Positions 28,253 to 50,673 of a stretch of 64,000 nt of DNA are shown one piece after another (position 1 is the stretch's first letter; each line of letters starts with the position of its first letter). Where the stretch lies: assembly GCA_963758155.1 (NCBI GenBank), contig CAVWUP010000007.1, positions 12,823-76,822 of the forward strand. Reading direction: 5' to 3'. This stretch comes from an uncultured delta proteobacterium. Its GTDB lineage: Bacteria; Myxococcota_A; Polyangia; Fen-1088. The position numbers and the translations under genes were made by a program. The notes under the pieces were generated by a model. The model saw nothing but the letters and a program-made list of their open reading frames with translations, had not been told where the DNA came from and ran no database searches.

Positions 28253-28275
28253 GACGTTCTCGATCCACTCTCCAG

Positions 28276-28521
28276 CTAGCGCGGGTGCCGAATCGTAGCA
28301 GATGCCGCCCGGGGCGCAGGTGAAGAACAACCCGCGGAAACATGCTCCCGGATTGCAGCGGGGTCGAAGCGCACCAACGCGCCCACCCGGATGTGGGGCA
28401 GAAGGCCGCATTCGAGCCGGTGGTACACCCAACTCCGCGACACTTTCAGGTATGCAGCCACCTCGGTCACCGTCCACAAGCCGTCGGACACGGGAACGTC
28501 GTTCGTGTTGATCGTGTTCAT
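28276..28521 (-). CDS. xis: excisionase / AlpA-like HTH protein
   Basis: LWTVTEVAAYLKVSRSWVYHRLECGLLPHIRVG HTH, directly upstream of int. Confidence 0.7.
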   Translation of the reverse strand: MNTINTNDVPVSDGLWTVTEVAAYLKVSRSWVYHRLECGLLPHIRVGALVRFDPAAIREHVSAGCSSPAPRAASATIRHPR

Positions 28522-31685: not shown

Positions 31686-34600
31686 TCACGCGTCTTGTAA
31701 CCTGACGACATGAACACCATTCCCTAACACCTGCTGCGCGATGGCGACGAGGTGCTCATGGTGGGTGAAAAACAGCACCTGGGTGTGCATCGCGAGGTCC
31801 GAGAGCACGCGAAAGGCAGCCGCGGCTCTCTGGTTATCGTAATGCGCCAGTAGATCGTCCGCGACGAACGGTAACGCCAGCGACGATTCGAGGTGCATCT
31901 CAAGAGCGGCGATTCTCAGAGCAAGGTAGAGCTGGTCTGCGGTCCCAGTACTCATGCTGCCCACGACGACGCGCTGGCTGTTGCGGCGGATTCCCGCCAG
32001 ACGCGGTTCATCCTTCTCGTCCAGTTCGGCTGCCAGTTGCACAAACTCGCCGAGGGTCAGGATCGAAAATAGGCCACTCGCGCGCGCGAGTAGTGGGCCC
32101 TGTTTCTCCCGGCGAAAGCGCTCGATGGCCCAACGGAGCAGAACGAGGGCCACGCGCACTCGGATGTAGCGCTCCATGGTCTCGGTCATACTAGCGATCG
32201 CCTCATTGCGCTGCGCGGCCGCGGTGGCGGCGTCGGCTTGGCCGGCTATCGCCTCCAGTTCGCGCTGTGCATCCTTCAACGAGACCACCAACCCCTTCTG
32301 CTTGTCCGACTGATCCTGGTGATCCTGGCGCGCCTTCGCGAGCGCGAGATCGAGCAGCGACCGGTCTTCCGCGGCCAATTCGGCTACGAGTTCGTCCAGC
32401 GTAAGACCATCTCCCGTCTCGATCAGATGTTGTTCCGTCGTATCAAGTTCGCGCTGCAGTTGCCGACGTCGTTGTGAAAGCTCGATCGCCGCAGTGAGAT
32501 CGGACAGACTCCCGACCCCCGCGCTCTCCAACAGCGGCTGCAGACGCGACTGGGCCTCTTGCCTCTTCGTGACTTCCTGACGGTGCTCATCTTGGAGATC
32601 CCCAATCCGCACAATCGCCTCATCCCGCACACGCTTGGATTCCTCGGCCGAAGCTAGGCGCAGTTCCAACTCCCGGGCCGCATCCATCGGTTCTCGACCC
32701 TGGAGTTCAGGCGCGACGGCACGGACAAGCCGAGCAATCTCCTGACCGAACACTTCGAGGTCCCGGAGCATCGTTTCGATTCGCGTTTTCTCTATGCTGC
32801 CGATCTCCCGTAGTTTTCCGTCGAGATCTTGCATCAGCGACAGCGCGCGAGAAGGTACATCGGGCTCCGTGGCCTGGGGCAGACCGAACTCCGCAAGGCA
32901 TCTTGCGAGATTTTTCTGCCACTCGACCATCGCCCGTTCGGCCTCCCCGTGTCTGGCCTCGAGATCAGGAAGAGACTGGTCCAGGCTCTTGAGCTGGTTG
33001 ACGAGCGCCTGTTGGCGTGTCCGCTCATCGTCGAGCGCTCGAACCGTCTCATCCGCGAAACCGACCAGGCCTGCAAACCCACGCCCTTCAACCTCTGCGT
33101 CAGCAACCCCAGCCGCAGTCAGCGCCTCGCGTAGTCCCTGCGCTGCCGCCTCCACATCACGATCGTGTCGCTCGACCTCGTCCCTTGCGCGCTCAAACAC
33201 CGAAGCGTCGTCGAGCGCCTTCTCACGGCGCACGATCCATGCCCGAAGTTTGGCCGGCGTCTCCAGAGAAATGCCGAACCCCGCTTGAAGCCGCGCGAGA
33301 TCACTCAGCGCCGTCTCCTCTTCCAACTTGAGTTCGCGCAGACGAGTGTCGGCAGCTTCCAGTCGATGGGCACACGTCTCAATGTCGGCACGAACCTGTT
33401 GTAGGGTGACGGAAGCCTCGGCGGCATCGAACCGCCGGTCGGCCAGCAGGTCGACATCCCGCACCAGCGTCTCGAACTCGCCCAGCCTTGCTGCACTCGG
33501 CTGAGTAGTGGAGTCAACGCCCTTCTCGACAGAAGATCGCAACAACCGCCAGTTCTCGTCGCGTCGAGCGCGCGCGTGTGCGAGATCCTCTGCAGTCACC
33601 GGTTGCTCATCCCGCTCGACCTGGCGCTCCTGGAGCCGCCGTTGTTCTAGGGTCTGCGCCTCGGCCGCTCGCCCCGAGCGCGTTGCCTCCTGGTCCTTCG
33701 TGAGCCGCCGAACCCGTTCTGCAATCGCATCTAGTTCCTCCTCAGTCGGAGGCACAATCCGGCGGAGGGCTTCCAGGTCCCCGCTCCAGGGGGCAAGTTG
33801 ACCGAATGCGATGCGCATTTTCTTCTCTGCAGTCGCAACTGGCGTCTCCAGAGCACGCCGTCGAGCATCGGCATCGCCGAGCTTACGGGCCGCGGCGATG
33901 GCGTCGCAGAGAGACCCAGGAGATCCCCTGTCGCGCGACGGGTCGCGTTCCAGAGCCACTTGGCGGCGTTCGCTGCGTTTCTCTGCGAGAGCTTGCCCGG
34001 CTGCGACGCTCGTGGCAGCAAGGCCAGCGTGGCGCCCAAGGAGGTGGGAGAGATCCTCCCGCGCCAATTCGGAGGGAATCCGTCCACGCCATTCGGCCAG
34101 CGTTCCTGCGGGCCAACCGAGGCGTGTGGCAAGCTCACCAGCCTGCATTGTCAGCTGTTGACTCTCCGCCCGCCTCTTCGCAATCCCCTCGGCATGACCC
34201 GTCAGCCTATGCCTCTCCCGCGTGCTGGCCCGAATGTCTTCCACCAGGGCTAGCACCCCCTCGTCAACCAGCGTCGTGTCCCGCCTCCCCGCAGCCTTTT
34301 CAAGATCGCCGGCAATACGCGCACACGCCCCGTCGGCGAGCGCGATCTCCGTCATAGCATCCCGCACCTGTTTGTCGGCCGTCTCGGGGAGAAGAGGAAT
34401 CCTCGCCAGCCCGGTCAGATCTTCGCGCAGGTGGGTCCTTCGAGCGAGCGCGGCCGCAACACGTTTGACCCTCTCGAGGTGAGCGCATTGCCGAACGAGT
34501 CGCTTCAGCTCAGCATCCCCCTCGTTCACGGCCTTTTCGGCCTCCTGGACTTTTCGCTCCGCCTCCCTGAAGTCCTTCGCCCGAACGATCGTGTCCCGCA

Positions 34601-35186
34601 GTGCCGTGTCGGCCGAGTTGAGTAGATCAAGTGCGACGTAGTACCGCCGGCTCGCGTTGCGGCGCGGACCCCACAGCTCCTCGGCCTGACTTTCGAGGTT
34701 CTCGAACACCTCGCCGAATCGGGCCAGACCACCGCTCGCCTGGAAGAGCATCCGCCCGATATCGTCCCTGGCGTCAAGCAACTGTTTACCGCCGTTCACC
34801 AGTCCTGCATGGTCCAGGCTAAACATGCGCTCGAAAAGCGCACGATCGGTGCTGCCAAGGAAGGGCGCCAGCACGGAATCAGCGAGCACACCCTCGCTGT
34901 CGTCGAGCAACGTGTTCTTGATACCCTTGCGCCGCCGGAAGGAGAGTCGCTGATTCCCTTGCTCAAGCACCGCACCGATGCGCATCGACTTGGTATCGTG
35001 GAGAAATGAGTATGGCGTGTTGCCTGCTATGTTGAACAACACGTCGGAGAGGGCCGCACGCGTCGTCGACTTCCCCGCCTCGTTCGGACCGACGACGACG
35101 TGAAAGTCCGGCACGTGCGCCGGAAGTTCAACAACCCGATCGGTGAAGCACCCGTAGCGAGCAAGGTCAAGACGAGCGACGCGCAT
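31686..35186 (-). CDS. SbcC/YhaN-like SMC-family AAA ATPase
   Basis: Walker A GPNEAGKST, about 900 aa of coiled coil, C-terminal signature/Walker B (MSTGTADQLYLALRIA...PFVADDLLAHYD). Confidence 0.85.
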   Translation of the reverse strand: MRVARLDLARYGCFTDRVVELPAHVPDFHVVVGPNEAGKSTTRAALSDVLFNIAGNTPYSFLHDTKSMRIGAVLEQGNQRLSFRRRKGIKNTLLDDSEGVLADSVLAPFLGSTDRALFERMFSLDHAGLVNGGKQLLDARDDIGRMLFQASGGLARFGEVFENLESQAEELWGPRRNASRRYYVALDLLNSADTALRDTIVRAKDFREAERKVQEAEKAVNEGDAELKRLVRQCAHLERVKRVAAALARRTHLREDLTGLARIPLLPETADKQVRDAMTEIALADGACARIAGDLEKAAGRRDTTLVDEGVLALVEDIRASTRERHRLTGHAEGIAKRRAESQQLTMQAGELATRLGWPAGTLAEWRGRIPSELAREDLSHLLGRHAGLAATSVAAGQALAEKRSERRQVALERDPSRDRGSPGSLCDAIAAARKLGDADARRRALETPVATAEKKMRIAFGQLAPWSGDLEALRRIVPPTEEELDAIAERVRRLTKDQEATRSGRAAEAQTLEQRRLQERQVERDEQPVTAEDLAHARARRDENWRLLRSSVEKGVDSTTQPSAARLGEFETLVRDVDLLADRRFDAAEASVTLQQVRADIETCAHRLEAADTRLRELKLEEETALSDLARLQAGFGISLETPAKLRAWIVRREKALDDASVFERARDEVERHDRDVEAAAQGLREALTAAGVADAEVEGRGFAGLVGFADETVRALDDERTRQQALVNQLKSLDQSLPDLEARHGEAERAMVEWQKNLARCLAEFGLPQATEPDVPSRALSLMQDLDGKLREIGSIEKTRIETMLRDLEVFGQEIARLVRAVAPELQGREPMDAARELELRLASAEESKRVRDEAIVRIGDLQDEHRQEVTKRQEAQSRLQPLLESAGVGSLSDLTAAIELSQRRRQLQRELDTTEQHLIETGDGLTLDELVAELAAEDRSLLDLALAKARQDHQDQSDKQKGLVVSLKDAQRELEAIAGQADAATAAAQRNEAIASMTETMERYIRVRVALVLLRWAIERFRREKQGPLLARASGLFSILTLGEFVQLAAELDEKDEPRLAGIRRNSQRVVVGSMSTGTADQLYLALRIAALEMHLESSLALPFVADDLLAHYDNQRAAAAFRVLSDLAMHTQVLFFTHHEHLVAIAQQVLGNGVHVVRLQDA

Positions 35187-35193
35187 TGCAGCC

Positions 35194-36459
35194 TTAGTCA
35201 CCCGCGACACGCGCCACCAAAGCGGGGGCAATCTCTCGAATGATATCGCCGAGCCGATTCTCGCGGATCGCCGAGAGCATCGGGTCTGACGCAGTCCGGA
35301 CCTCGGGCTCTAGCTTGGAGATCATCTCCGCCAGTTCCTCCTCGAGCGCACGCAGGAGGTCAGCATCGCCGGGGGCCTGCTCCAGCATGACGTGGAGATC
35401 AGCAACAGCATCCCCCCGCGCCTCGATTTCCGCCGCGCTCCATGCGGGTTCGGTCGCCAGGCGCAGTTTTTCGATCCACAAGCGCTCCGCGCCGTGTGCG
35501 AGCGCCGCCGCTTGGAGTTCGGCGCGCACGCGCGACTCGGCGCCGAAGAGCTCACCGTGAGCCGCTGTTCTGCCAAACAACGTCACTCGAGCAGCGATTG
35601 GGCGACCGCCAGCCATATCAAGCGCGGTCACGAACCGCGCCTCGGCGCGTGCGATCGCTTCGTTGGCGGTCGCGCAGCCTTGCACGTCGACGCGAATATC
35701 TTCCCAGCGCAGAACGTCTTCGACCAGACGTGACACCGAGACGATCGCGTCTCCGTCGGCCTCGACCAGCATCGCACCTCGCGCACCCGTCTCTCGCACG
35801 TTTCGCCCCTGGAGATTGCCGGGGAACACGACCCAAGGGCGCTCGCATACGATCTCGTACTCGTGCGCGTGACCGAGTGCCCAGTACTCGTACCCTCTGC
35901 CGCGCAAATCGTCGAGATCGCACGGAGCATACGGCTCGTGCCCTTCACGGCCGCCAAGTGCGGTGTGGAGCACACCTATGTTGAGCCAACCAGGAACGCG
36001 CTCCGGGTACTGCTTGACGAGATTCTCGCTGACTGCCCGCTGTCGAAAGCTCTGCCCGTGGATTGCGACGTGTAGGTCGTCGAACTTGATGGTCTCGGCC
36101 TTGCGCGATCCGAATACGTGAACATTGTCCGGCAGACGGAGGCGCAACGATGGACTGAGGTCGCTTTCGGCGTCGTGGTTTCCATAAAGGACGACGACGC
36201 GAATGTTGGCCCCCCGCAGGCGGCCCATCTGCGCGGCAAAGAAGAGCCCCGTGTTGAAGTCTTTCCACGTGCCGTCATACAGGTCACCTGCGATGACCAC
36301 GAAGTCGACTTGTCCAGTGATCGCTTCATCAATCAAACCCTCGAAAGCTCGCCGGGGGGCCGTACGCAGCATGTCGAGCGGAGCCTCCGGGCACGAGCTG
36401 AGTCCGGACAGCGCACTGTCGAGGTGGACATCGGCGGCGTGGATGAATCGGATAGGCAT
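35194..36459 (-). CDS. SbcD/Mre11-like metallophosphoesterase nuclease
   Basis: IHAADVHLD, IAGDLYD, GNHD and ALGHAHE phosphoesterase motifs. Confidence 0.85.
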   Translation of the reverse strand: MPIRFIHAADVHLDSALSGLSSCPEAPLDMLRTAPRRAFEGLIDEAITGQVDFVVIAGDLYDGTWKDFNTGLFFAAQMGRLRGANIRVVVLYGNHDAESDLSPSLRLRLPDNVHVFGSRKAETIKFDDLHVAIHGQSFRQRAVSENLVKQYPERVPGWLNIGVLHTALGGREGHEPYAPCDLDDLRGRGYEYWALGHAHEYEIVCERPWVVFPGNLQGRNVRETGARGAMLVEADGDAIVSVSRLVEDVLRWEDIRVDVQGCATANEAIARAEARFVTALDMAGGRPIAARVTLFGRTAAHGELFGAESRVRAELQAAALAHGAERLWIEKLRLATEPAWSAAEIEARGDAVADLHVMLEQAPGDADLLRALEEELAEMISKLEPEVRTASDPMLSAIRENRLGDIIREIAPALVARVAGD

Positions 36460-36691
36460 TGGTGGGTACCGTCCACGGCACAGCACGCACCAACAGAGTG
36501 AGGGCGCGCTGTCTTGTGGCATGGAAATGCTACACCCTGCGAGCCGGATCGGACGGCAATTTCTCCCGTGACGGGAGCGTTGCTGCCTGTTCGTCGCCAC
36601 CGACGAGTTGCGGATGGGCGGCCGTTCATCGCAGTCACGCCACCCTCGCGCCCCTCGGCCCCCGCGCTTACCTCTCGCGTTTGGGGGCCGC

Positions 36692-37516
36692 TCATCCGAC
36701 GGGCAGAAATGCTGGCCCAGGAAGGCCGAGCGCGTCCGGCAGTGTTCCCCCCTGACGGATTTCGTCCAGCAGGCACATTCGAATCTCCGGCTCGGCCCCA
36801 AGCCCAGACGCGAAGTCCCTGGTGTTGGACAGCCGGCGCTCGCCCTCGGTTACAACCAGCACGACGAGACCGCTCGTGGAGAACAGCGGCATCCCGGCTG
36901 CTCGCGCGCGCACGTAGGCCAGGAGTTTCTGGCGAACCTGGGCTAGTGGCTGCCCGGCGCAGTTGACTTCCCACATGACCAAGCGAACGGCCCCGTCATT
37001 CTCGATCGTCGCGAGGCCATCCGGCACCAGCCGAGCCTCGCGGAACGGCGAGCGATTGGCCAATTCGCCGTCCAGCCTGATGTCTGTCACCGCCAGTAGC
37101 CCGTGCGTCCTGGCGGTCAGGAAAGACACCGCCACGTCCCGAACCGCCACGGCGTGTCCCAGTTTCTGGGACTGGGCGTTCAGCCGATACGGCCTGGTGT
37201 CTTCCGGGGCGAGCCCTTCGTCGCGCAACAAGGTCAGCCCACGCAGGCCGAGCGTCCACACGGTATCGCGATGAAGGGCTCCTCCCTGCAGGTGCGCGCG
37301 CAGGTACCCGTGGTCAAGTAGTGCGCGTAGGCGGCGCTGCGCCCGCCGCCGCGACGGAAATGCTAGACGCTCGATCTGGCATGTCGTCAGGAATCCTGCC
37401 CAACACAGATCCGAGAACAGCGTTCGCTCTCGGCCTGATGGCACCAAGCCGCCCGTGGGCGTGCGCGGGCATGCGCGTTTTGGGAGGCGTGATGCGTTCA
37501 CTCGAACTTCCGCCAT
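36692..37516 (-). CDS. replication-relaxation (Replic_Relax) family protein
   Basis: TLFSDLCWAGFLTTCQIERLAFPSRRRAQRRLRALLDHGYL N-terminal HTH typical of the family. Start uncertain. Confidence 0.65.
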   Translation of the reverse strand: MAEVRVNASRLPKRACPRTPTGGLVPSGRERTLFSDLCWAGFLTTCQIERLAFPSRRRAQRRLRALLDHGYLRAHLQGGALHRDTVWTLGLRGLTLLRDEGLAPEDTRPYRLNAQSQKLGHAVAVRDVAVSFLTARTHGLLAVTDIRLDGELANRSPFREARLVPDGLATIENDGAVRLVMWEVNCAGQPLAQVRQKLLAYVRARAAGMPLFSTSGLVVLVVTEGERRLSNTRDFASGLGAEPEIRMCLLDEIRQGGTLPDALGLPGPAFLPVG

Positions 37517-37833
37517 GGCAGCACCACGGCCAATTCGCACGTCTCACAGGGGAACCAGTCCGCCTCGGAACCACAAATCTCGCAGCGGCCGACCCAGCCA
37601 AGGTACTGGCCGTGGCAGGTCACGCATTCCCAACGCGCAGCTACCGCGTTCGCGTGGCCATTCGGACAAGCGAGAGATGCCGCCCAGAATGCCGGCAGGT
37701 TCTTAAGCCAACGAACGGCCCGCGGAAAAAAAGCCACCGCCACGAACACACCCACGATGGCGAACACGGGCGTCATGATGAGCATTACCCCCACGCGCGT
37801 GACCGAGATGCGCTTTGCCGCGGGCCCCGTCAT
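37498..37833 (-). CDS. membrane-anchored zinc-ribbon protein
   Basis: TM helix, then CPNGH...CVTCHG...CEICG...CETC. ATGA overlap with the upstream ATPase stop. Confidence 0.5.
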   Translation of the reverse strand: MTGPAAKRISVTRVGVMLIMTPVFAIVGVFVAVAFFPRAVRWLKNLPAFWAASLACPNGHANAVAARWECVTCHGQYLGWVGRCEICGSEADWFPCETCELAVVLPWRKFE

Positions 37834-39461: not shown

Positions 39462-39839
39462 TCACGCCGCGGGTGGATCTCCGTCCTGCGCTTGAGGCAA
39501 GTTCGGCGCGGGCGGCAGCGCGCGGCGACGCACTCGCATTGCCCTCCGATCCCCCTCGCGCCCAGTCGCTCGGGCCTCAAGCCAGGAATAACCGATCAAT
39601 GCCAGCACGACAACCAGGACGAGTAAGGCGATGTCGCCCGTGCCCGGGCCGTCCACGCCCTGCAGAAGCCCCTCGCCATGACAGTCCCGCAGACTCGCGA
39701 AGGTCAGGCCGCAGATCAGGATGACCGCCCCCCACGTCAGGGCATTGGCGGCATCGGTCGGATATCCGAGCCGCCGAACCAAGAACCGACCCACAACCGA
39801 GGCGAGGCCGAGCGCGAGAAGGAAGCCAACGACGATCAT
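39462..39839 (-). CDS. small polytopic membrane protein
   Basis: Three hydrophobic segments. ATGA overlap with the JAB stop. Confidence 0.45.
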   Translation of the reverse strand: MIVVGFLLALGLASVVGRFLVRRLGYPTDAANALTWGAVILICGLTFASLRDCHGEGLLQGVDGPGTGDIALLVLVVVLALIGYSWLEARATGREGDRRAMRVRRRALPPAPNLPQAQDGDPPAA

Positions 39840-40843
39840 GGCTCTGTACACATGGGCAAGTCGCCGGCCATGTCGATCCGCGCGACCTGGCAGATCTCGC
39901 TTTCATTCACGGTTGCGGTTGTGGATTGAAGAGTCGCACCTTCTCCTCGGGCTCGTTCCATGTCCGTGAGCCTGCGTTCAATCTCGACGGTCCTTTCATC
40001 GATCCGGGCCACGTGACCCCAGAGCGCGATGATCGCAAGAAGTGTCAACACCGCAACCGGGGCGGCCAGTTTCGGCCAAACACGGCGCATGGATGGAGCA
40101 GCGCTAGGGGGTGTCGGAATTGCGGCCGGTGGCTTGCTCTCGGTCTCCGGCTCGGCCATCTCCGGGACCTTGGGCTGCGGCCCGAAGGGCTTGAGCATCT
40201 CCCCCTCGGGTCCCCTGTACACCCCCAGCCTGGGCTCACTGAACGGATCGACGACGATGCCGATGGAGTGCGGCTGGGTCCAGGTCGACTGGTTCTTGAA
40301 ATCGGTACTTGAGTAGCGGGCGCCGTAGCGGATGTGACCATGCACCCAGCCCACCGGTATGCAGTCTGGATACAGCAATCGCGCCGCCATGCGGGTCCGC
40401 ATTTCGGAACCGAAGGACGTCCGAACGAATCCGCGCTGCGCGTCCGCTTCCGGATCTGGTACGACACCCAGGATGACGACATGATGTCCGACATCATCTA
40501 GATACACACGGCCGACCAGCAACCCGTACCACTCGCGCGGCGCCGCCTGCTTGCCAAGAACTATCGTTCGTTCCACGACAGACTCGGGAATCGCAACCTC
40601 GAAGCCCGTCGCCCCGCCGTACAAGACGTAGCCCGTTCTAGCTGAATGCCTTGGCGCGCGCCGAACGGGCTCGTCGACGACGCCCACCGGTGTGAAGCTT
40701 GGGACCGATCCGACCGTTCGTATCCGACCAGGCCTTACGGGCGGGGCGCGAAGCAACACAAAAGGATGGCGAGGCTGGACGTGTGGGGCTCTACACGGTG
40801 GAGTATCGGTTCCCAATCCTGATCGACGCGGGACCAACGACAC
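39836..40843 (-). CDS. JAB/MPN (JAMM) metallopeptidase with C-terminal TM helix and coiled coil
   Basis: EWYGLLVG (Glu), GWVHGHIRYGARYSSTD (HxH...S..D). Probable true start near 40620 (GTG/TTG). C-terminal TM (VAVLTLLAIIALWG). Confidence 0.75.
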   Translation of the reverse strand: MSLVPRRSGLGTDTPPCRAPHVQPRHPFVLLRAPPVRPGRIRTVGSVPSFTPVGVVDEPVRRAPRHSARTGYVLYGGATGFEVAIPESVVERTIVLGKQAAPREWYGLLVGRVYLDDVGHHVVILGVVPDPEADAQRGFVRTSFGSEMRTRMAARLLYPDCIPVGWVHGHIRYGARYSSTDFKNQSTWTQPHSIGIVVDPFSEPRLGVYRGPEGEMLKPFGPQPKVPEMAEPETESKPPAAIPTPPSAAPSMRRVWPKLAAPVAVLTLLAIIALWGHVARIDERTVEIERRLTDMERARGEGATLQSTTATVNESEICQVARIDMAGDLPMCTEP

Positions 40844-41352
40844 CGAGAGTGACGGTGAAGTTGGACCTATTGGCAGGCGGCAACTATCCCTTCAGCGATC
40901 CGGCAGCGATATGTCTCGGGGCGCCCCTCCCTTGGTCGCCTCACTTCCACCCCAGCAGCGGCACCGTTTGCCTAGGTGATGCATGGAGAAGCGCTCAGGG
41001 GCGGATGCTGGCCGGACAAATCGTTGTCCACATAATGCGCCTGCTCAACTTCGACGAGCCCGACCAAGAACGATATGGCGGCTGGAATCCGCCAGCGGTT
41101 CGGTACTGGCGATCAATTCTGGGGACCCGGCCACTCCATCCCGATCTGCAGTATCCGGTCTTGCCCGCGGAGGTCACGCATGCACTGTACGACGCGAACA
41201 GCAGATTCCAGCCCATCGGCGACGGCTCCGGAAGTAACAGCTTCGTTGGCGCATCAGTGGCGGCGTTCGCGCCCGCACCACTTGAAGTGATGTTCGTGCC
41301 GGTCGGCGATGCGGATGGCGGAGGCTTCCAACCGCTGGGAGGTGCCCTATGA
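40699..41352 (+). CDS. E2-like ubiquitin-conjugating fold protein
   Basis: HFHPSSGTVCLGDAW resembles the HPN...G.ICLD E2 active site. Start may be GTG near 40787. Confidence 0.6.
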   Translation: MGPIRPFVSDQALRAGREATQKDGEAGRVGLYTVEYRFPILIDAGPTTPRVTVKLDLLAGGNYPFSDPAAICLGAPLPWSPHFHPSSGTVCLGDAWRSAQGRMLAGQIVVHIMRLLNFDEPDQERYGGWNPPAVRYWRSILGTRPLHPDLQYPVLPAEVTHALYDANSRFQPIGDGSGSNSFVGASVAAFAPAPLEVMFVPVGDADGGGFQPLGGAL

Positions 41353-41477
41353 CGATGGACAACGGAATGTTGGATCGTGTGGCGGACGAAAGGAATCGGA
41401 ATGCAGGCCGCACATGACCCTGTAGTCGAATGCGAGGCGCGTGCGCAGGTGCGCGGGGCTGAGCCTGGCCATGTTCG

Positions 41478-41753
41478 TCAAGCTCCGGCGCTGGTCTCAG
41501 TGACCGGCAGATTGTCCCCGTCCTGCACACCGGCGGCGACGAGCGATGAGGATAGCGGAACGGTCGCGCCCGTGCGCTGCAACTGAAGCGCGTAGGCCCT
41601 TGTGGCGCCAGGTGCCTCGATGAAACCCGCCTTGACCAGACCGTCGATCGCCTGCTTCCCGGTGGTGCCGGGGCCCAACTCGGCCTTGAATTCGCGCGAG
41701 TCGCGCGGATGCAAAAAAACTGCGGTGATCTTTCCGTTCGTGGTTGTCGTCAT
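41478..41753 (-). CDS. ubiquitin-like (beta-grasp) small protein
   Basis: 91 aa, 4-nt spacing from the E1 stop. ...VAAGVQDGDNLPVTETSAGA C-terminus. Confidence 0.5.
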   Translation of the reverse strand: MTTTTNGKITAVFLHPRDSREFKAELGPGTTGKQAIDGLVKAGFIEAPGATRAYALQLQRTGATVPLSSSLVAAGVQDGDNLPVTETSAGA

Positions 41754-41757
41754 GTTC

Positions 41758-43032
41758 CTACTCCTGTTTGGTGTCCTCGTTCTTCTCAGTGGCCGAAGTG
41801 GCCCTGGTGTTACGCTCCTGCCTTCGCGTTTCGAACAGGTCGTCGATGTCGCCGGACAACTTCACTGCGTGCAGCTCTCCCGTCGCGCGGTCCTCGATCT
41901 CGAACACGGCCGCGGGCGGAAGGCCAAGCGTGTGACAGCGGCGCTGCACCAGCGAATGGTCGCCGGCCACCGTCGATGCGACCACCATCCCCCGGTCGCC
42001 AAGCTGGGGCAACTCGGGACACTTTGTGCAGCCCGGAGGCTGGTGTACGCCCCAGAGCGGTTTGCCAATCTCTATGGACGCCCCGCATAAGGCGCAGGGC
42101 ATCTCGACAATGAAGGGCGCCGGCAGCTGCACCACGGGCTCGGTCACGAAGGACCGAGCCGCCTCCAGAACAGCACGCAACGGCTCCTCGCAGCGCACAG
42201 CCAGCGGCCGAATTTCTCCGAGACGGCGGTGAACCCCCGGACAGTTTGGATCGGTGGTCAGATGAAGCACTCTGGTTTGGCCGGTGTGGAGATCGAGAAA
42301 GAACGCCTTCCCACCAAGCGGGAACCGCTGGTGGATCGCCTGGATCGCGTGTTCCGCAGCGAGAGCACCCAGGACCGCCGCCAGCGATTGCGTCGCCGGG
42401 ATAGCGCCCGCCTCAGCCACGCGCCGGGCGTACAAGACGCAGGATGCGGCGCCATCCTCAACCTCGGGATTGAGGCACCGCCAGCAGGCCTCGTCACCGA
42501 CGCGATTCGGGAATACAGATACCTGTCCTCGTGATCCGGAGAAACCGAGTTCCACCAGCGGGATACCCAATAAGCGGGTCGCATCGGCCAGTAGCGCACG
42601 GACCCGTAGCGAGTCGACCGCTGCAATCACCACATCAGATCCGACGAGGGCGCCGAGACCGACCTCCTCGAAACGAGCGACCGCGAAACGTACGATGGGA
42701 TCGTCAGCATAGGAGTTGGCTAGCGCGCCCATGGCTGCCTCGCGCGCCTTGAACCGCACCCGCTTGCCCGCCAGACGGCGACGGTCGAAGAGCGGTGATC
42801 TCGTTAGATTGGATGCTTCGACGCTGTCGAAGTCGATCAGTCGAAGCTCATTGACGCCGGCGAGGGCCATCGTCTGGCCCGCGTTGCAACCACCGGCTCC
42901 CAAGCCCACCACCGTGACGATTGCCGATGACATGCGCGCGCGGTCGTAGCCGGCGAGGGTCTCGCGCGAAAACAAGCCGTTGCTAGTGTTGATGTCCATC
43001 ACGTGCCCTCCCGCATATCCAGCACGGAGCAC
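41758..43032 (-). CDS. E1-like ThiF/MoeB-family activating enzyme
   Basis: VTVVGLGAGGCNAGQTMALAGVNELRLIDFDSVEASNLTR Rossmann/ATP motif, CWRC...CxxC zinc site. Start may be MDINTS (42999). Confidence 0.85.
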   Translation of the reverse strand: MLRAGYAGGHVMDINTSNGLFSRETLAGYDRARMSSAIVTVVGLGAGGCNAGQTMALAGVNELRLIDFDSVEASNLTRSPLFDRRRLAGKRVRFKAREAAMGALANSYADDPIVRFAVARFEEVGLGALVGSDVVIAAVDSLRVRALLADATRLLGIPLVELGFSGSRGQVSVFPNRVGDEACWRCLNPEVEDGAASCVLYARRVAEAGAIPATQSLAAVLGALAAEHAIQAIHQRFPLGGKAFFLDLHTGQTRVLHLTTDPNCPGVHRRLGEIRPLAVRCEEPLRAVLEAARSFVTEPVVQLPAPFIVEMPCALCGASIEIGKPLWGVHQPPGCTKCPELPQLGDRGMVVASTVAGDHSLVQRRCHTLGLPPAAVFEIEDRATGELHAVKLSGDIDDLFETRRQERNTRATSATEKNEDTKQE

Positions 43033-43198
43033 CGACTGGGGTTGCCTTATCTGTTTCGACTAGTGAGAAGTCCGACATTGGTTGGAAGCTCGCAGCGCGT
43101 TTTCCCCTTGGCTTGCGAACCGGCGGGGGAGCCGTTGGACGCGCGTCTAATCTTGTGAGGAGAAAACAAAGACCGAGAATGGCGACCAGCCCGTCCAT
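42983..43198 (-). CDS. small membrane protein with C-terminal CWICGR...DGHQH motif (paralog 1)
   Basis: N-terminal TM helix, then a C-x2-C-x6-H-x-H tail. A paralog is adjacent. Confidence 0.4.
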   Translation of the reverse strand: MDGLVAILGLCFLLTRLDARPTAPPPVRKPRGKRAASFQPMSDFSLVETDKATPVGAPCWICGRARDGHQH

Positions 43199-43213
43199 AG
43201 CGATGCCTTTCCA

Positions 43214-43489
43214 TCAATGACGGCAGAAACCGTCGGGTTGCTTGTGGTTGTGACCGTCTGGTGCACTCTTTGAGCGACCGCACACCCAGCAGGGCTGCTC
43301 CCCTGGCCCCGGCCCCATCACCGGTACAAAGGCATCGGGCGACAAGACGCGTCGGCTTCCCCATGTCCTTCTGTGCCGAGCTTCGAGAGGACGGAACGCG
43401 CGGTCCTCGCGATCCCGCAAGAACTTTGAGTATGCCTGCCCGAGCAGGAAGCCACCGATCAGACATGAAATCAGGGCTGCAATTCCCAT
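43214..43489 (-). CDS. small membrane protein with C-terminal CWVCGR...DGHNH motif (paralog 2)
   Basis: Same architecture as 42983-43198. Confidence 0.4.
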   Translation of the reverse strand: MGIAALISCLIGGFLLGQAYSKFLRDREDRAFRPLEARHRRTWGSRRVLSPDAFVPVMGPGPGEQPCWVCGRSKSAPDGHNHKQPDGFCRH

Positions 43490-43610: not shown

Positions 43611-44522
43611 ATGGCCACGGACGTGAACACCCTTAGCAGGCTCTTGCAGGCGCTCGCAGAGCGCCGGTGGGAGGACGCCGTGACGCTTGGAGCGGCGCTC
43701 GCCAAGCGCGAGGAGCGCCAGGGGCACTTCCAGGCCGCGCGACGGCTTCGCGGCGCGCTGGGTGAGACCGGCAACGGTGACGCGGGCGAAGTACCTTGGC
43801 GCGCCACCGGCGGGGCGCCATCCGCGCTACGAGCGCTGCTTCCGGTCTCGCCGGTCGAGCTTGAACAGGTCGTGCTCCCACGCCACCTGCGCGAACAGCT
43901 CGAAGAACTCGCCCTCGAGTGGCGACTCCACGAGCAGCTTGAGCAGGCCGGCATGGGCAGGCGGCGCAAGCTGCTGTTCGTCGGCCCGCCAGGCTGCGGA
44001 AAAACACTCACCGCACGTGCGCTCGGCGGGATGACTTCCTTGCCGATCCTTGTGGTCCGGTTCGACGCCATCGTGGGGGCGTACCTGGGACAGACCGCCG
44101 CCCAGCTTCGGGAGGTCTTCGCCTACGCCGAGGCGATTCCGTCGGTGTTGGTGCTGGACGAGATCGATGCCCTTGCCCAACGTCGCGGCAACCCGCGCGA
44201 GGTGGGCGAACTCGACCGGGTGGTCATTTCGCTGATGCAGGAGCTTGAGCACGCGTCGCCCCGCGGCTTCGTGGTGGCCAGTTCGAACTTGCCTAGACTC
44301 CTTGACGAGGCCCTTTGGCGCAGGTTCGACCTGGTGCTGTCATTCCCGGCGGCGGCCCGGCGGGACTTGGTCGCCTTCGCTCGGAGCCGCCTCCGCACGT
44401 GGTCGCTCCGCCCGCCGCGCAATCTGCCCGCTATTCTCAAGGGCGCGAACTCCTACGCTGACGTTGACCGCGTGCTAGGCGACCTACGCCGGCGCACGAT
44501 CTTGCGCCAGCACATGGAGTGA
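43611..44522 (+). CDS. AAA+ ATPase
   Basis: Walker A GPPGCGKT, Walker B VLVLDEID, and sensor/arginine-finger region. Confidence 0.85.
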   Translation: MATDVNTLSRLLQALAERRWEDAVTLGAALAKREERQGHFQAARRLRGALGETGNGDAGEVPWRATGGAPSALRALLPVSPVELEQVVLPRHLREQLEELALEWRLHEQLEQAGMGRRRKLLFVGPPGCGKTLTARALGGMTSLPILVVRFDAIVGAYLGQTAAQLREVFAYAEAIPSVLVLDEIDALAQRRGNPREVGELDRVVISLMQELEHASPRGFVVASSNLPRLLDEALWRRFDLVLSFPAAARRDLVAFARSRLRTWSLRPPRNLPAILKGANSYADVDRVLGDLRRRTILRQHME

Positions 44523-44523
44523 G

Positions 44524-46917
44524 ATGGCCGAGATCAGGGCGCCTCGAACCTTTTTCCTGAACGAAGCCCACGAGCACGCGCGGGGCGAGAAGAAGGGTGG
44601 AGGCGGGGTTCCCAAGTACGCCTCGATCAACTGGCAAGCGAAGGGCGAGCGCATCGCCAAATCCCTGAGGGCAGCGCGAACCGCCGTTCGGCAGTCGCCG
44701 GACCCGGTTCGGGAAACTCGCTTCTTCCTGCTTTCGAAGGCCGAGGCCAAGATCGAGAAGTTCTCCACGGACAAACGGAAGTCCAAGGACGGTCGCGTGG
44801 TCGAGGAGATCCACCCGGCCGGTAAGCACGCTGGGATTTTCCAACGGCTGGGGCTCGACCTTCTTGGGGTGACAGACCGGGGAGAAGCCTTGGTGCACGC
44901 CGAGGCCGACAGACTAGATCGCCTGCTCGCAACCGCGGATGCTCTGGGCTCGGCGGGCCCGCGCGAACAAGCCCGATGGGCGCTTCTGTCGGACTTTCAG
45001 CCCGCGCCGCCCGAGACGCGCGCCGACCCCGAGTGGATCTCGTCCATCCCGCTGAAGACAACAGTGGAGGCCATCGTCGAGATTCAACCGCTCCTCCTGC
45101 GCACGGAGGTTGAGGCCGTGGCCAAAGCTCTGCGCGATTCTATCGCCGGCGATGGCCGCCAGGCAGTCCTCGCAGCCGGGCGGGACTTCTCGGGCCGCAG
45201 TTGGTTCCGCATGCGGCTCTTGCGGCAGACCGTGGACGCGTTTGCCAGGCAGTTCCAGTCAATCCAGTCGATCCACCCCCCACTACGGTCGCCCCTGGCT
45301 GCGGTGAACACCAAGGCGCCCGCGGTCGCAGGCGGCGTCGCGGTTCCACCGATCACAGACGCCAATCTTCCGGCGGTCGCCATCGTGGACGCGGGCATTC
45401 CGCAACAACACCCAGTCCTTGCCCGCTATCGGCGAGGACAATTCCTGCATGCGGAAGCAGGACAACCAGGAACCGACGATCACGCCTCGCGAGTCGCGTC
45501 GCGCATCGTTTTTGGGGACGTCGATGCGAGTAGCGCGGGGTATGTGCCGCCACCCGGCCGGTGTCAGTTCCTGGACGTGGTGGTCCCCGCTTTCCCGGGG
45601 AGCATTGGCAAAATCCCCACCATTGATCTCGACAACAAGGCTATCCAGGATGTCATCGGCGACGTCACGCGCAACTACCCCGACGTGCGCGTGTTCGACT
45701 TCAGCTTCGGAAGCCATCAACCCCTGTCGCGGTTGACTGCCGTGCAAAGGCGCGAGGAACTCATTGGGGTCCAGGATCTCGACAACTTCATCTTCGCGAA
45801 CGACGTGCTTGTCGTCGTGGCGGCCGGAAACTCGCCGCGCGGAGCTGTTCCAAACCAGCAGTACCCGGGGCATGTCGACGATCCAGATTGGGGTCTCGGT
45901 GCCTGGGCGTGCGGGTTCAACACGCTGGTCATTGGTTCCTACGTGGGGCAGCCCCACTCAGACGGCCTGGCCGGACACACCGGGTGGCCAAGCCCGTTCA
46001 CCCGCATCGGCCCAGGGTTGGCGGAAGCGCCGGTCCCCAGCTTCTCTGCGAGCGGCGGCGATTCGACGAGGAACTACGGCTACCAAAGCCCGCTGGGGGT
46101 CTGGACCTGCGGACGTACCGGGTTGTGGGAGGATGCCGTTGGAACCTCGTTCGCCGCGCCGATTGTCGCCCGCGAAGCCGCGATCCTTCTCCAGCAACTC
46201 CAGCGGCACTGCGCACCGGGAATCCCGTGCTTCGCAGCGACAGCGAGGGCATTCTTGCGGCTGGTCGCACGGCGATCTGGCGACCAGCCGTTTCCGCCCC
46301 GTGTCCGGAAACTCGCTGACCTGACGCTCGGACACGGACTGCCCACCGCCGAGCGGCTTGCCCGCCCTCGCGCATCGAGCGCAGTGCTCGTTTGGCAGGG
46401 GACTCTGGAAGATCCTGCGTCGATCGCGCGGGTGCGTGTGCCCGTGCCGCTCGCCTGGGTGGCAGCCGCGCAGCACCCCAGCCTGCGGGTCGTCTGTGCC
46501 TGGAATACACCGGTGAGTGCGGCCGCGCCTGATGTCTGGGCCAGCCGCAAGGTGGTCATGCACCTCAAGCCCACGCTCGGAGCGGAGGCGATCCGGGGCA
46601 AGGGCAAGTCCCACAGGAGCTACCCGATCACCGACAGGGTGTGGCGGCTTGATCGGGATGAGGAGGGCGAACCACGGGCCACGCCACCGTCCGACGAGTG
46701 GGTGGTAGAGTTATTCTACGAGGACGTCGGACCCTATCCCGCCACCCTCCAGATCTCGCCTCAGCAGCAAGTTTCGCTGGTGATGGAGCTGTTCGACGAT
46801 TCGAGCACCCCGATCAGTCCCCAGGAGGAATTGCAGAAGCTGCCCATCGCGGAAACGATGATTCGCCTCGCGGGCGTGGCGCGCGAGGTCCAGGTGCCGG
46901 TGAAGATCCGCGTGTAG
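44524..46917 (+). CDS. subtilisin-like (S8) serine peptidase
   Basis: AIVDAGI (Asp), HASRVASRI (His), GTSFAAPIVA (Ser). 1-nt gap after the AAA+ gene. Confidence 0.9.
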   Translation: MAEIRAPRTFFLNEAHEHARGEKKGGGGVPKYASINWQAKGERIAKSLRAARTAVRQSPDPVRETRFFLLSKAEAKIEKFSTDKRKSKDGRVVEEIHPAGKHAGIFQRLGLDLLGVTDRGEALVHAEADRLDRLLATADALGSAGPREQARWALLSDFQPAPPETRADPEWISSIPLKTTVEAIVEIQPLLLRTEVEAVAKALRDSIAGDGRQAVLAAGRDFSGRSWFRMRLLRQTVDAFARQFQSIQSIHPPLRSPLAAVNTKAPAVAGGVAVPPITDANLPAVAIVDAGIPQQHPVLARYRRGQFLHAEAGQPGTDDHASRVASRIVFGDVDASSAGYVPPPGRCQFLDVVVPAFPGSIGKIPTIDLDNKAIQDVIGDVTRNYPDVRVFDFSFGSHQPLSRLTAVQRREELIGVQDLDNFIFANDVLVVVAAGNSPRGAVPNQQYPGHVDDPDWGLGAWACGFNTLVIGSYVGQPHSDGLAGHTGWPSPFTRIGPGLAEAPVPSFSASGGDSTRNYGYQSPLGVWTCGRTGLWEDAVGTSFAAPIVAREAAILLQQLQRHCAPGIPCFAATARAFLRLVARRSGDQPFPPRVRKLADLTLGHGLPTAERLARPRASSAVLVWQGTLEDPASIARVRVPVPLAWVAAAQHPSLRVVCAWNTPVSAAAPDVWASRKVVMHLKPTLGAEAIRGKGKSHRSYPITDRVWRLDRDEEGEPRATPPSDEWVVELFYEDVGPYPATLQISPQQQVSLVMELFDDSSTPISPQEELQKLPIAETMIRLAGVAREVQVPVKIRV

Positions 46918-48421: not shown

Positions 48422-49144
48422 ATGGAGCATAGGAAGGAGAACCTTCACGCGGGTCATCGGGCACGCTTGCGAAGGCGCTTTCTCGATGAGGGGCTCGACG
48501 CCTTCGAGGACCACCAGGTCCTCGAGCTGCTCCTGTTCTTCGCCATTCCCCGTCGGGACACCAACGAACTCGCCCATCTCCTGCTGCGCCGCTACGGCTC
48601 CTTCTCTGCCGTGCTCGATGCCGACCCCGTCGATTTTGCGCAGACTGAGGGGGTTGGCGAGGCTGCGGCGACGCTGCTGTCGCTCGTGCCCGCCCTGACT
48701 CGGCGGTACTCGATGGATCGCACGCGCCAAGAGCGGCAAACGCTGAACACGAGCGAGCGGGCAGCCGAGTTCCTCGTGCCCCTTATGGCTGGCAGGAGCG
48801 AGGAGGTCTTCTACATCGTCTGCCTCGATACCCAGTGCCGGGTGATCGTCCCTGCTCTCGTTGTTGAGGGGCTGCCTGATCGCGCCCACATTGAGCCGCG
48901 CCAGGCGGTCGAGGTGGCTTTGCGCCACAAGGCACACTCGGTGATCCTGGCGCACAACCACCCCACTGGGCAGGCCAAGCCCACGACGGCCGATCACCGG
49001 GCCACCCAAACGCTCGTCAGCGCATTCGGCGCAATTGCCATCGTCGTCCGGGACCACATCATCGTGGCGGGGGAAGATTGGTACAGCTTCTCTCGTGCAG
49101 GCGACATGCCAGCTGCAAAACCAACGGGAGCACTGAACCCATGA
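48422..49144 (+). CDS. radC: RadC-like JAB domain protein (UPF0758)
   Basis: HNHPTGQAKPTTADHRAT JAMM motif with the RadC N-terminal HhH-like region. Confidence 0.85.
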   Translation: MEHRKENLHAGHRARLRRRFLDEGLDAFEDHQVLELLLFFAIPRRDTNELAHLLLRRYGSFSAVLDADPVDFAQTEGVGEAAATLLSLVPALTRRYSMDRTRQERQTLNTSERAAEFLVPLMAGRSEEVFYIVCLDTQCRVIVPALVVEGLPDRAHIEPRQAVEVALRHKAHSVILAHNHPTGQAKPTTADHRATQTLVSAFGAIAIVVRDHIIVAGEDWYSFSRAGDMPAAKPTGALNP

Positions 49145-50673
49145 AGCTCACGGACGCGCAGAAACGGGCCGTCGCGCACGCGAAGGCCAACTTGCAGCTC
49201 ATTGCTTGCGCCGGCTCGGGCAAGACGGAGGTCGTGGCCCGTTTCGTGGCGAACCTCCTCAACCCGAGGACCAAGCCGAGGGTCGTACCAGCGAACATCA
49301 TAGCGTTCACGTTCACCGAGAAGGCGGCTGCTGAGCTGAAAGAACGAATCGTGACGAGGTGTCGGGAGGAGAATGGGGATCAACCGGGACTCGCCGAACT
49401 CTATGTCGGCACCATCCACGCCTTCTGCCTGGATCTTCTCAAGACCGAAGTGCCGCGCTTCCTCAAGTTCGAGGTGCTGAATGAGGTCCAGCAGGCTCTC
49501 TTTGTCGACCGGCACAGCAAGCAGAGCGGTCTCACGACGACCACCGACCTGACAGGTCGAGTTCTTCAGCGCTACAAGGACACCGATCTCTACGTTGCCG
49601 CGCTGTCGATCCTCCGCGAGGCCCAGCTCGACGACGAAGTTCTGCGCGGCAACTCGGTCGTCACAGGTCTTAGCGCCTACAAGGCACTGCTGACCAAGGA
49701 AGACTCGTTCGATTACTCGTCGATCCTCGGCGAGGCTGTTTGCGCACTTCGAGACGATGCGGGACTGCGCGATCGGATGCGCGACCGCGTCCGCTACGTC
49801 ATCGTGGACGAGTACCAGGACGTGAACCCGATCCAGGAATGCATCGTCAAGCTGCTGCACGACTTGGGTGCGTATGTCTGCGTGGTGGGCGATGACGACC
49901 AGACCATCTACCAGTGGCGAGGCAGCGACGTCCGCAACATCCTCAACTTCGAGAAGCGCTACCCAAAGCCGAAGCAGATCCGGCTTGAGGAGAATTTCCG
50001 TTCCAGCGAGGGGATCGTCGAGACCGCACGGGACTTCATCAGCAAAAACGCCGAACGCCTTCCCAAGGCGATGAAACCAACGGATGTTCAGCCCTACGAG
50101 GCCGGCGACATCATCGCGCTCGCCTTGGCCGATCCGGACGCGGAGGCGCAGCACATCGCCGCGAGCATCAAGGCTCTTCGCGGTGTCGCCTTCAAGGAGG
50201 ACGACGCCAAGCGGGGCTTGGCTTGGTCGGATATGGCCATCCTCTTGCGAAGCGTCCGCAACAGCGCCGATCCGATCACGCGTGCGCTCTCGGCGGCAGG
50301 CATCCCTTTTGTCATCGGCGGGATGAACGATCTCTTTTCTCGGGCCGAGGCCGAGGCGGCGCGGCAGCTCTTCTACTTCATTCGCGGACGCATCGACGAG
50401 GCTGCACTGATCGCTGCCTGGAAAGCGGCGGCGCTCGGTGTCTCGAAGCGGGCAATCGACCAGGCAGTCGCGGGCGCCAAGGCCACCAAAGAAGCTCTCG
50501 ATGGAACGGACGAGAACCGCTGGAGCTATTACTCCCTGCAACGGCAGTTCCTCACCTTCCTCGAGGATTTGGAGCTGCGCGAGGAGTCGGTCCCGGACGG
50601 TCGCGGCGAGGTTGTCTTCTACAACCTCGGCAAGTTCAGTCAGCTCATCTCGGACTTCGAGACCATCCACTAA
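49141..50673 (+). pseudogene. UvrD/Rep-type SF1 helicase, C-terminally truncated
   Basis: IACAGSGKTEV (Walker A), VIVDEYQD, GDDDQTIYQWRG. Ends after about 510 aa, exactly where a transposase fragment begins. Confidence 0.7.

Follow-up and report, generated by a model that had tools for sequence, protein, structure and literature searches.

This analysis concerns a ubiquitin-like conjugation cassette, comprising an activating enzyme (E1), a ubiquitin-like protein (Ubl), a conjugating enzyme (E2) and a JAMM/JAB peptidase, that is encoded on a stretch of 64,000 nucleotides (the window) from an uncultured delta proteobacterium of the lineage Myxococcota_A, Polyangia, Fen-1088 (assembly GCA_963758155.1, contig CAVWUP010000007.1, positions 12,823 to 76,822 of the forward strand). 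As judged from its sequences, the cassette is a distinct and rare family, a variant of bacterial ubiquitin-like conjugation that is neither Bil nor Bub. With moderate confidence, it is regarded here as the front half of an operon of about ten genes that is carried on integrative islands and serves in genetic conflict, and that has been disabled at the E2 step in this genome by an inversion of 693 bp. The family was not named in the literature searched; an earlier description is possible, since Burroughs et al. 2011 and 2012 lay outside the coverage.

Along the minus strand of the window, the module runs in the order Replic_Relax, p111, ATPase, 129-residue protein, JAB open reading frame (ORF), Ubl, E1, p71 and p91, as taken from the ORF list and from scans with hidden Markov models (HMMs); the gap between the JAB ORF and the Ubl is filled by an E2-like ORF on the plus strand. 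The cassette proper consists of the following genes.

39836–40698, minus strand: codons 15–301 of the JAB/JAMM peptidase, encoding the catalytic domain, a transmembrane (TM) helix (residues 225–242 of the intact protein) and a charged helix
40699–41352, plus strand: codons 28–244 and stop of the E2, UBC fold, a 217-residue ORF with ...PWSPHFHPSSGTVCLG... and the catalytic Cys91 (Cys118 in the intact protein)
41478–41753, minus strand: Ubl of 91 residues, beta-grasp, ending ...VTETSAGA and starting 4 nt after the E1 stop
41758–43032, minus strand: E1, an adenylating enzyme of MoeB/ThiF type (Pfam ThiF 4.9e-30, residues 32–265 of 424)

The identity of these parts, their conserved catalytic residues and their synteny are directly observed, as is the inversion; the four families named by an initial annotation, made from the letters alone, were borne out by HMMs, structure prediction and fold search. 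The E1, for which a likely start at 42999 gives 413 residues, has as its best PDB match the MoeB of E. coli (1jw9, 2.8e-19), and aligns with this 249-residue protein from end to end with only a 7-residue insertion around Cys198, which is found likewise across 14 loci of the family. A single adenylation domain is followed in it by about 150 residues that make up the C-terminal domain. In the alignment of the 14 loci, the adenylation motifs GxGxxG (43–48), DFD (67–69), SNLTR (74–78) and AVD (138–140) are all kept, together with a zinc site made up of CWRC (183–186; ligands C183 and C186) with C264 and H268, and a second CxxC..CxxC (313–338) in the C-terminal domain; the adenylation residues are equally retained in the alignment with MoeB. 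The crossover loop contains Cys198, which corresponds in position to MoeB Cys187 and is kept in 13 of the 14 loci, the remaining one having a cysteine 1–2 positions away. The ThiF/MoeB E1 with a zinc site, as first annotated, is thereby confirmed by the ThiF and MoeB matches and by the conserved Cys/Cys and Cys/His ligands.

The Ubl gives nothing above threshold in PADLOC, NCBIfam or Pfam. Its AlphaFold model, with a predicted local distance difference test score (pLDDT) of 82, has the strand-strand-helix-strand-strand order, and the top Foldseek match is the ubiquitin of Caldiarchaeum subterraneum (6fno_D, TM-score 0.71–0.73); further matches are FAT10, SUMO, the Ubl domain of EccD and the Bil Ubl 8tyx_A, all at a probability of 1.0. 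ORF, model and fold search thus agree with the reading of a beta-grasp Ubl of 91 residues 4 nt downstream of the E1. That the protein ends in ...SAGA, without a Gly-Gly, had been listed as a peculiarity; the ending is real, but it appears to be a conserved processing site across 27 Ubls, among which ...VTETSAGA is nearly invariant and is followed in 16 by 2–7 variable residues. Fusions of the Ubl to the E2 account for about 20 of the best 150 E2 representatives (about 13%), and at all but one of their junctions the Ubl ends in [G/A][A/G] before a variable residue; in two of them (P0252 and P0260), the E2 is preceded by two tandem Ubls, each with a G-A end, in the manner of a small polyubiquitin. 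Because the conserved [G/A][A/G] precedes either variable tails or a fused E2, this family-wide end carries the signature of a processing site, as indicated by the aligned sequences, and the recurrence of the fusions argues for a functional linkage of Ubl and E2. The BilA of E. aridi ends in Gly97-Ala98 and forms conjugates only without Ala98 (PMC10557695); by this analogy, cleavage of the present Ubl after the Gly would be favoured. In P0134, a Ubl–E2 fusion whose junction lacks the G-A site, the C-terminal region looks TIR-like by eye.

Similarly, the E2 has nothing above threshold in PADLOC, NCBIfam or Pfam; its homologues number 82, and Pfam assigns it no domain, only UQ_con recurring as a weak match, below threshold, in 11 of 30 family members (best E 0.0024). 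A profile of 30 homologues nevertheless matches only E2 enzymes in the PDB (best 0.002), the structure model is confident for residues 1–150, and the top 50 Foldseek matches of this model are all E2 or UEV proteins. By hhalign, the cysteine is placed onto Cys85 of UBE2D2, and the W-S-P-H that is conserved 9 residues upstream is placed onto Y-H-P-N; the cysteine is present in 199 of 209 members and the upstream histidine in 194 of 212. After the cysteine, the window E2 has R, A and L at positions +6, +8 and +13, and the next conserved histidine is found at +20. The description of this ORF as E2-like, with an active-site loop of HPxxxGxxCL type, is therefore upheld by profile, fold and alignment. 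As only 209 relatives (169 of them at E<=1e-10) emerge when 1.84 billion representatives are searched with a profile, the E2 family is small and closed, and does not run into the general E2 superfamily. The C-terminal stretch of about 60 residues is predicted to be disordered (pLDDT below 50) and terminates in an F-[RQK]-P that is conserved in most members; this tail may be a docking peptide.

The JAB, called as an ORF of 335 residues (39836–40843, minus strand), scores marginally below the Pfam cut-off for Prok-JAB (24.7 bits vs 25; 2.2e-5), and its best PDB match is Rpn11 (1.4e-5). Glu70 and H134-G-H...S-xx-D are present, and H-x-H-x7-S-xx-D is intact; the JAMM motif is found in all 15 relatives compared. 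The anchor is formed by the TM helix followed by an R-L/I-D...L-E-x-R-L helix, and the window protein is 65% identical to the JAB of the related locus L001. The intact motif and the hydrophobic helix support the JAMM/JAB peptidase with a C-terminal TM helix and charged helix that had been proposed; the membrane anchor is indeed there, but it was wrongly taken as unusual, being a family-wide trait that recurs in 13 of the 15 relatives.

The E2 stands on the strand opposite to its partners, an arrangement that had been listed as unusual. The orientation is real; however, it is the result of an inversion, of which the remains are laid out as follows.

40699–41391: inverted segment of 693 bp, relative to the ancestral operon; re-inversion restores E2 and JAB
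41349–41391, plus strand: orphaned codons 1–14 of the JAB (MTMDNGMLDRVADE) and 1 nt, carried along with the inverted segment after the E2 stop
41392–41472, minus strand: orphaned 5' stub of the E2, codons 1–27, MARLSPAHLRTRLAFDYRVMCGLHSDS, directly after the Ubl stop

In 29 homologues, the E2 has about 27 extra N-terminal residues that are missing from the window ORF; the stub matches these residues and joins exactly to L28 at 40699, and in its present place it reads on into antisense JAB sequence as far as a stop at 41347. At the other junction, the 14 orphaned residues are exactly those that precede SFTPVGVVDEP in the JAB of L001, and the apparent N-terminus of the 335-residue JAB ORF is antisense E2 sequence. 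Re-inverting 40699–41391 yields an E2 of 244 residues and a JAB of 301 residues with the same ATGA stop/start overlap as in L001, and the re-inverted segment aligns to L001 as one colinear stretch of 1440 nt, with 78% identity, across both junctions; the inversion is conservative, no base having been gained or lost. In all 16 other distinct related loci, E1, Ubl, E2 and JAB follow one another colinearly on one strand, and none is inverted. An assembly artefact was rejected on account of identical junctions in GCA_049690695.1 and in the Logan assemblies of SRR27973230 and ERR11571142, the inverted form being 100% identical among these and the window; at the same time, the un-inverted E2 and JAB proteins are absent, by exact-sequence look-up, from a collection of 15 billion proteins. 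On these comparative grounds, it is concluded that the opposite-strand E2 reflects a real illegitimate inversion, fixed in and specific to this strain. One further candidate for an inverted or truncated E2, P0004 (212 residues), was rejected, the locus being colinear and differing in its start call only.

Phase variation, with the inverted segment acting as a reversible on/off switch of the E2 and JAB genes, is highly improbable. Such a switch would suit a perfectly conservative inversion whose reversal would restore both genes, the intact state of all other genes of the operon, and the large tyrosine recombinase encoded on the island. The breakpoints, however, have no inverted repeats (a direct comparison of the two sites gives 16 matches in 60, and microhomology is limited to 3 nt at each junction), for which reason a site-specific inversion is unlikely; moreover, the same orientation in all assemblies of the strain, the missing un-inverted proteins and the un-inverted state of all 16 related loci speak against a switch.

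Because the E2 has been separated from its first 27 codons and from the strand of the operon, and the JAB from its first 14 codons, the conjugation cascade is most likely dead at the E2 step in this genome, although the E1, the Ubl and five downstream genes remain full length despite the inversion. The initial annotation had spoken of a complete four-part module; all the features it listed are present, the 217-residue protein having an E2 fold, the 91-residue protein a beta-grasp fold and the E1 its adenylation residues, but the completeness does not hold, as the E2 and JAB ORFs are products of the inversion. For annotation in general, the case indicates that a small, clean inversion can lie behind an odd orientation; here, gene callers made of it ORFs that are plausible yet truncated.

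In related loci, the cassette is embedded in a longer operon, and its window counterpart continues downstream with four genes.

39462–39851, minus strand: 129-residue protein, judged by eye from the sequence to have three TM helices; same position in L001, L004, L011 and L013
37830–39455, minus strand: HerA/FtsK-type P-loop ATPase of 541 residues, Walker A GRTGTGKT; weak DUF87/HerA and FtsK_SpoIIIE matches
37498–37833, minus strand: p111, 111 residues; TM helix at the N-terminus, and a Cys-rich C-terminus resembling a zinc ribbon; conserved in L001, L004, L007, L011 and L012
36692–37540, minus strand: Replic_Relax (replication-relaxation) family protein, the last gene of the module (Pfam PF13814, 9.8e-16)

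The 129-residue protein has no family match in Pfam or NCBIfam. The ATPase, for which 82 homologues were found, also matches padloc mad8 (1.9e-14) and, weakly, EccC and VirD4-like models. The arrangement is most plainly seen in L001, the E2 of which is 66% identical and where eight genes lie on one strand in the order E1, Ubl, E2 (243 residues), JAB (301 residues), TM protein, ATPase, p112 and Replic_Relax; Replic_Relax is likewise linked to the module in L004, L007, L009, L011, L012, L025 and L026. The last two loci were reached from the ATPase and have a ThiF E1 with intervening genes upstream of it and Replic_Relax downstream; of the two, only L026 has a JAB match, and the E2 and Ubl there are presumed from gene sizes. 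Upstream of their E1 genes, both of these Myxococcota loci have a match to sigma-70 region 4 (L025 2531–3148, weak; L026 3834–4385, faint), which hints at dedicated transcriptional control.

Taken at one genome per GTDB species, 11 loci were found, all in metagenome-assembled genomes, and the loci belong to Myxococcota, Acidobacteriota (Pyrinomonadaceae, Blastocatellia), Chloroflexia and Candidatus Uhrbacteria; the E2 has no match in phages or IMG/VR viral contigs. In Myxococcota and Uhrbacteria, the neighbourhood consists of a small TM protein, the core, and then one or more TM proteins, the ATPase, p111 and Replic_Relax; the Chloroflexia locus has the small upstream protein, and its downstream ORFs suggest, by eye, a related ATPase. 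At the Acidobacteriota loci (L010, L014, L015 and L018), a DUF4407-like membrane protein and a caspase-like gene take the place of ATPase and Replic_Relax after the JAB, and the core of L010 sits between TIR, caspase and CHAT genes; nothing relevant on DUF4407 was found in the literature.

Two small genes precede the E1 in the window.

42983–43198, minus strand: p71, a small TM protein with the C-terminal sequence PCWICGRARDGHQH; stop codon overlapping the start of the E1
43214–43489, minus strand: p91, from the ORF list; hydrophobic helix at the N-terminus, metal-binding motif PCWVCGR...DGHNH...C-x-H at the C-terminus

The two proteins are paralogous, each having an N-terminal hydrophobic helix and a C-terminal PCWxCGR...DGHxH, and homologues of p91, which has no Pfam or NCBIfam match, stand upstream of the E1 in L001 and L004. 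More broadly, a C(W/R)xCG...GHxH protein directly precedes the E1 in Myxococcota (L001, L004, L011, L012), Uhrbacteria (L009) and Chloroflexia (L016), and was not found at the Acidobacteriota loci. The motif, C-x2-C...H-x-H with 4–6 possible ligands, reads by eye as too short for a RING and gives no RING match; it resembles the PCWRC site of the E1. Proteins of this type could be a minimal metal-binding adaptor or an E3-like factor.

The steps of the mechanism proposed for intact relatives are drawn from the conserved residues and the named families. The membrane-anchored JAMM peptidase would trim the Ubl at [G/A][A/G], removing the tail or releasing the fused Ubl; the MoeB-like E1, presumably as a homodimer, would adenylate the C-terminus of the Ubl and take it onto the crossover-loop Cys198; the Ubl would then pass to the E2 cysteine (Cys118 of the intact protein) and onward to target proteins, and the same JAMM peptidase could reverse the tag. 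By the predicted topology, the cascade would be located at the inner face of the membrane beside the 3-TM protein, the HerA/FtsK-type ATPase, the zinc-ribbon protein and Replic_Relax, and these co-inherited proteins may act in DNA sensing or as effectors within a conflict system (defence or exclusion) that is borne by the element. A conflict role is suggested by gene context: IetAS, AbiEii and a GajB-like helicase share the island, the Acidobacteriota versions adjoin DUF4407, caspase-like, TIR and CHAT genes, and one relative appears, by eye, to be a Ubl–E2–TIR fusion.

Several points weigh against this reading. PADLOC and NCBIfam hold no model for the Ubl, E2 or JAB, so that a defence role comes from the neighbourhood, and a role in element maintenance would account equally well for the strict association with Replic_Relax and with an FtsK-like ATPase. 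No E3 was found in the module and there is no RING match, the nearest feature being the C-x2-C...H-x-H knuckle of the small TM proteins. With G/A and A/G variation at the last two positions of the Ubl, a terminal small residue, usually Ala, fits the aligned sequences as well as a terminal Gly would. Finally, the truncated E2 retains an open frame of 217 codons and could be expressed from an unseen promoter; a sigma-70 scan around it gave 0 sites, a simple scan of this kind being uninformative for a myxobacterium.

The main rival, less likely than the conflict reading, is that the cassette belongs to the replication or transfer machinery of the island itself, where Ubl tagging at the membrane would control the FtsK/HerA-type translocase and Replic_Relax. 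Tagging would then license, for example, excision, replication or cell-to-cell transfer of DNA, comparable to the movement of DNA by TraB-type systems in actinomycete elements. Consistent with this, ATPase, p111 and Replic_Relax follow the JAB in every Myxococcota or Uhrbacteria locus examined, both loci found from the ATPase carry a ThiF E1 upstream, and an integrase gene is called in four related loci (L007, L008, L009 and L026) as well as in the window, there at a distance of about 13 kb from the E1; besides the weak EccC, FtsK and VirD4-like matches of the ATPase, its sole plasmid relative, a weak match on a Herpetosiphon plasmid, stands two genes downstream of a VirB4-like gene. On the other hand, the Acidobacteriota core does without ATPase and Replic_Relax and sits beside caspase-like, TIR and CHAT genes; no relaxase, type IV secretion system or other conjugation genes were seen in the module; neither the E2 nor Replic_Relax has a match among 72,556 plasmids; and the function of Replic_Relax is itself only an annotation. 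In an equally unlikely but bolder form, the cascade might be, rather than a free-standing defence system, the obligatory membrane-bound partner of the HerA/FtsK-type translocase and Replic_Relax, governing the movement or replication of the element's DNA or blocking that of a rival, with a reactive end that may be Ala; if this tentative proposal were true, tagging tied to element DNA with an Ala-ended modifier would be a role and a chemistry that no ubiquitin-like system is known to have.

The preferred reading, that of a separate family with a conflict role, is best appreciated against the systems already described. Bil (BilABCD, Types I and II; operon types 6d and 6c/CEHH of Iyer 2006) combines a Ubl, an E2, a JAB and an E1 of IAD-AAD-CYS layout with a CYS insertion of about 80 residues (PMC10557695, PMC11601596), and its E2 has a conserved histidine downstream of the cysteine (PMC10557695, PMC11601596, PMC1779556). 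The classical histidine upstream of the cysteine is missing from the Bil E2. That the present cassette is an ordinary member of Bil, tagging a phage structural protein as Bil does, is improbable. In its favour, the set of proteins matches, with separate genes for an E1, a Ubl of one beta-grasp domain, an E2 bearing a cysteine and a JAMM peptidase, all of which are identified here. C-terminal trimming of the Ubl (predicted in the present case) and a location on mobile or defence islands are shared as well, the island of the window being defence-rich; as in Bil, no E3 gene was found, the Bil Ubl 8tyx_A is among the Foldseek matches, and the G-A end parallels that of E. aridi BilA (PMC10557695). 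However, the E1 has neither the inactive adenylation domain nor the CYS insertion of about 80 residues, but a single adenylation domain with its cysteine in a short crossover loop and a C-terminal domain containing a zinc ribbon; the E2 keeps W-S-P-H upstream of its cysteine and lacks the CEHH of Type II Bil (C-x5-E-x-H-x4-H), and the profile search, with its 209 relatives, does not reach other E2 families. Unlike in Bil, moreover, the JAB is membrane-anchored, and the operon continues with a 3-TM protein, a HerA/FtsK ATPase, a zinc-ribbon protein and Replic_Relax.

Bub (6E/DUF6527) resembles the family in its E1/E2/Ubl operons, Ubl–E2 fusions and multi-beta-grasp Ubls, and in a JAB that releases the fused Ubl. 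It differs in chemistry, since the Bub E2 uses a serine and the Bub E1 lacks a catalytic cysteine (oxyester, Ser/Tyr chemistry), whereas both enzymes have a cysteine here; it differs also in architecture, with a JAB–E1 fusion beside the Ubl–E2 fusion in Type I and an E2–E1 fusion in Type II, whereas E1 and JAB are separate in 16 of 16 loci of the present family. Pfam scans, which covered 22 genes elsewhere in the window besides eight of the module, gave no match to DUF6527 (PF20137; the BubE serine protease of Bub), p71 and p111 being covered by NCBIfam only. Given the single-domain E1 without CYS insertion, the Cys E2 with W-S-P-H and the lack of a DUF6527 match, the earlier assignment of the locus to Bil/Bub-type systems is not supported. 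With the Cap2/Cap3 of Type II CBASS, the family shares the E1-E2-JAB logic on mobile elements and a weak padloc E1-E2 match (1e-8), the padloc matches to E1-E2 (Cap2) spanning only the adenylation domain of the E1; the module has no nucleotidyltransferase (CD-NTase) and no E2–E1 fusion, and it encodes a dedicated Ubl, unlike the Cap2 system, which conjugates the enzyme's own C-terminus.

Other likenesses point beyond these bacterial systems. As in the Caldiarchaeum-type operon, the Ubl is nearest Caldiarchaeum ubiquitin, the JAB nearest Rpn11 and the E2 nearest eukaryotic E2s, a likeness at the level of fold and weak sequence similarity rather than of phylogeny. The tri-ligase Ubl systems (Burroughs et al. 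2011, cited in PMC7159879) have, in the part of the source available, Ubl–E2 fusions and caspase partners (PMC7159879), and in these features, with caspase-like neighbours in some versions, the present family is like them; the same part of that source makes no mention of membrane anchoring or of linkage to an ATPase and Replic_Relax (PMC7159879). Unlike the Caldiarchaeum and tri-ligase type, the Ubl ends in S-A-G-A ([G/A][A/G] in the fusions) and not in Gly-Gly, and the E1 is MoeB-sized. Operons of that type also encode a small E3 of RING type, to which nothing in the module gave a match, p71 and p91 with their C-x2-C...H-x-H being the nearest feature. MoeB/ThiF and homodimeric non-canonical E1s such as UBA5 share with the E1 one adenylation domain, a zinc site and a cysteine at the position of MoeB Cys187; the E1 of the family is set apart from MoeB/ThiF by its E2 and JAMM peptidase partners and by the lack of a rhodanese domain and of a cofactor-biosynthesis context. 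A sulfur-carrier system of the MoeB/MoaD or ThiF/ThiS kind, rather than protein conjugation, is hardly credible, as the nearness of the E1 to MoeB and ThiF in sequence and in its single adenylation domain is outweighed by the constant presence of a JAMM peptidase and of a conserved protein of UBC fold with its cysteine, by the existence of Ubl–E2 fusions, by the lack of a rhodanese domain and of thiamine or molybdopterin genes nearby, and by the mobile island on which the locus stands.

Bacterial ubiquitin-like conjugation is now represented by Type II CBASS, Bil and Bub, to which the present family would add a fourth design. This combines a MoeB-sized E1 bearing a crossover-loop cysteine, an E2 and a JAMM peptidase that are more like eukaryotic UBC and Rpn11 than the known bacterial ones, a Ubl nearest archaeal ubiquitin yet ending in Gly-Ala, a putative membrane anchor on the peptidase, and a constant association with an ATPase resembling DNA translocases, on integrative islands of Myxococcota and of a candidate-phylum bacterium. 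The family offers a compact set of proteins for testing the E1-E2 hand-off before the CYS and IAD domains arose, and allows a test of ubiquitin-like tagging in the biology of mobile elements.

The surroundings of the module in the window are those of an island. By Pfam scans, housekeeping genes occupy 1–24 kb, and the island begins at about 25.8 kb; it contains an AbiEii toxin, a tyrosine integrase, REase-ARP, an SbcC/SbcD-like pair, RadC, a GajB-like UvrD helicase and an IS66-related gene, the principal features being the following.

25818–26570: AbiEii toxin, left part of the island
26864–28804: tyrosine integrase of unusual length (646 residues), in the left part of the island; on its left side lie chromosomal housekeeping genes
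30168–31052: REase-ARP nuclease, left part of the island
31686–36801, minus strand: SbcC-like (AAA_27, 1181 residues) and SbcD-like (Metallophos) pair, directly downstream of Replic_Relax
43611–46917, plus strand: IetA (AAA ATPase, padloc 1.3e-61) and IetS (S8 subtilase, 1.2e-30), from padloc
48422–50673, plus strand: RadC-like JAB protein overlapping a UvrD-type helicase that matches GajB models (2e-51)

With an integrase on the island, the description of the module as carried on an integrative element is a fair one. A search for the island boundaries gave no tRNA genes, and the sole att candidate, a weak one, is a 12-nt exact match, GAGCCAAGAATG, at 26809 and 61823. The IetA/IetS pair, which is divergent from the Ubl operon, represents another candidate defence system of the island, one that is already known. 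The SbcC/SbcD-like pair has a weak padloc mad3 match; it is present in the window strain and in L003 and not in L001, which indicates a separate insertion. Towards the right of the window, an ORF at 59611–60774 (minus strand) is made of seven tandem repeats of about 108 nt, a 54-nt stretch is exactly duplicated in tandem at 63150–63257, and a gene start encoding MTKANLITVIADK... occurs in two copies, 86% identical, at 59345 and 61928.

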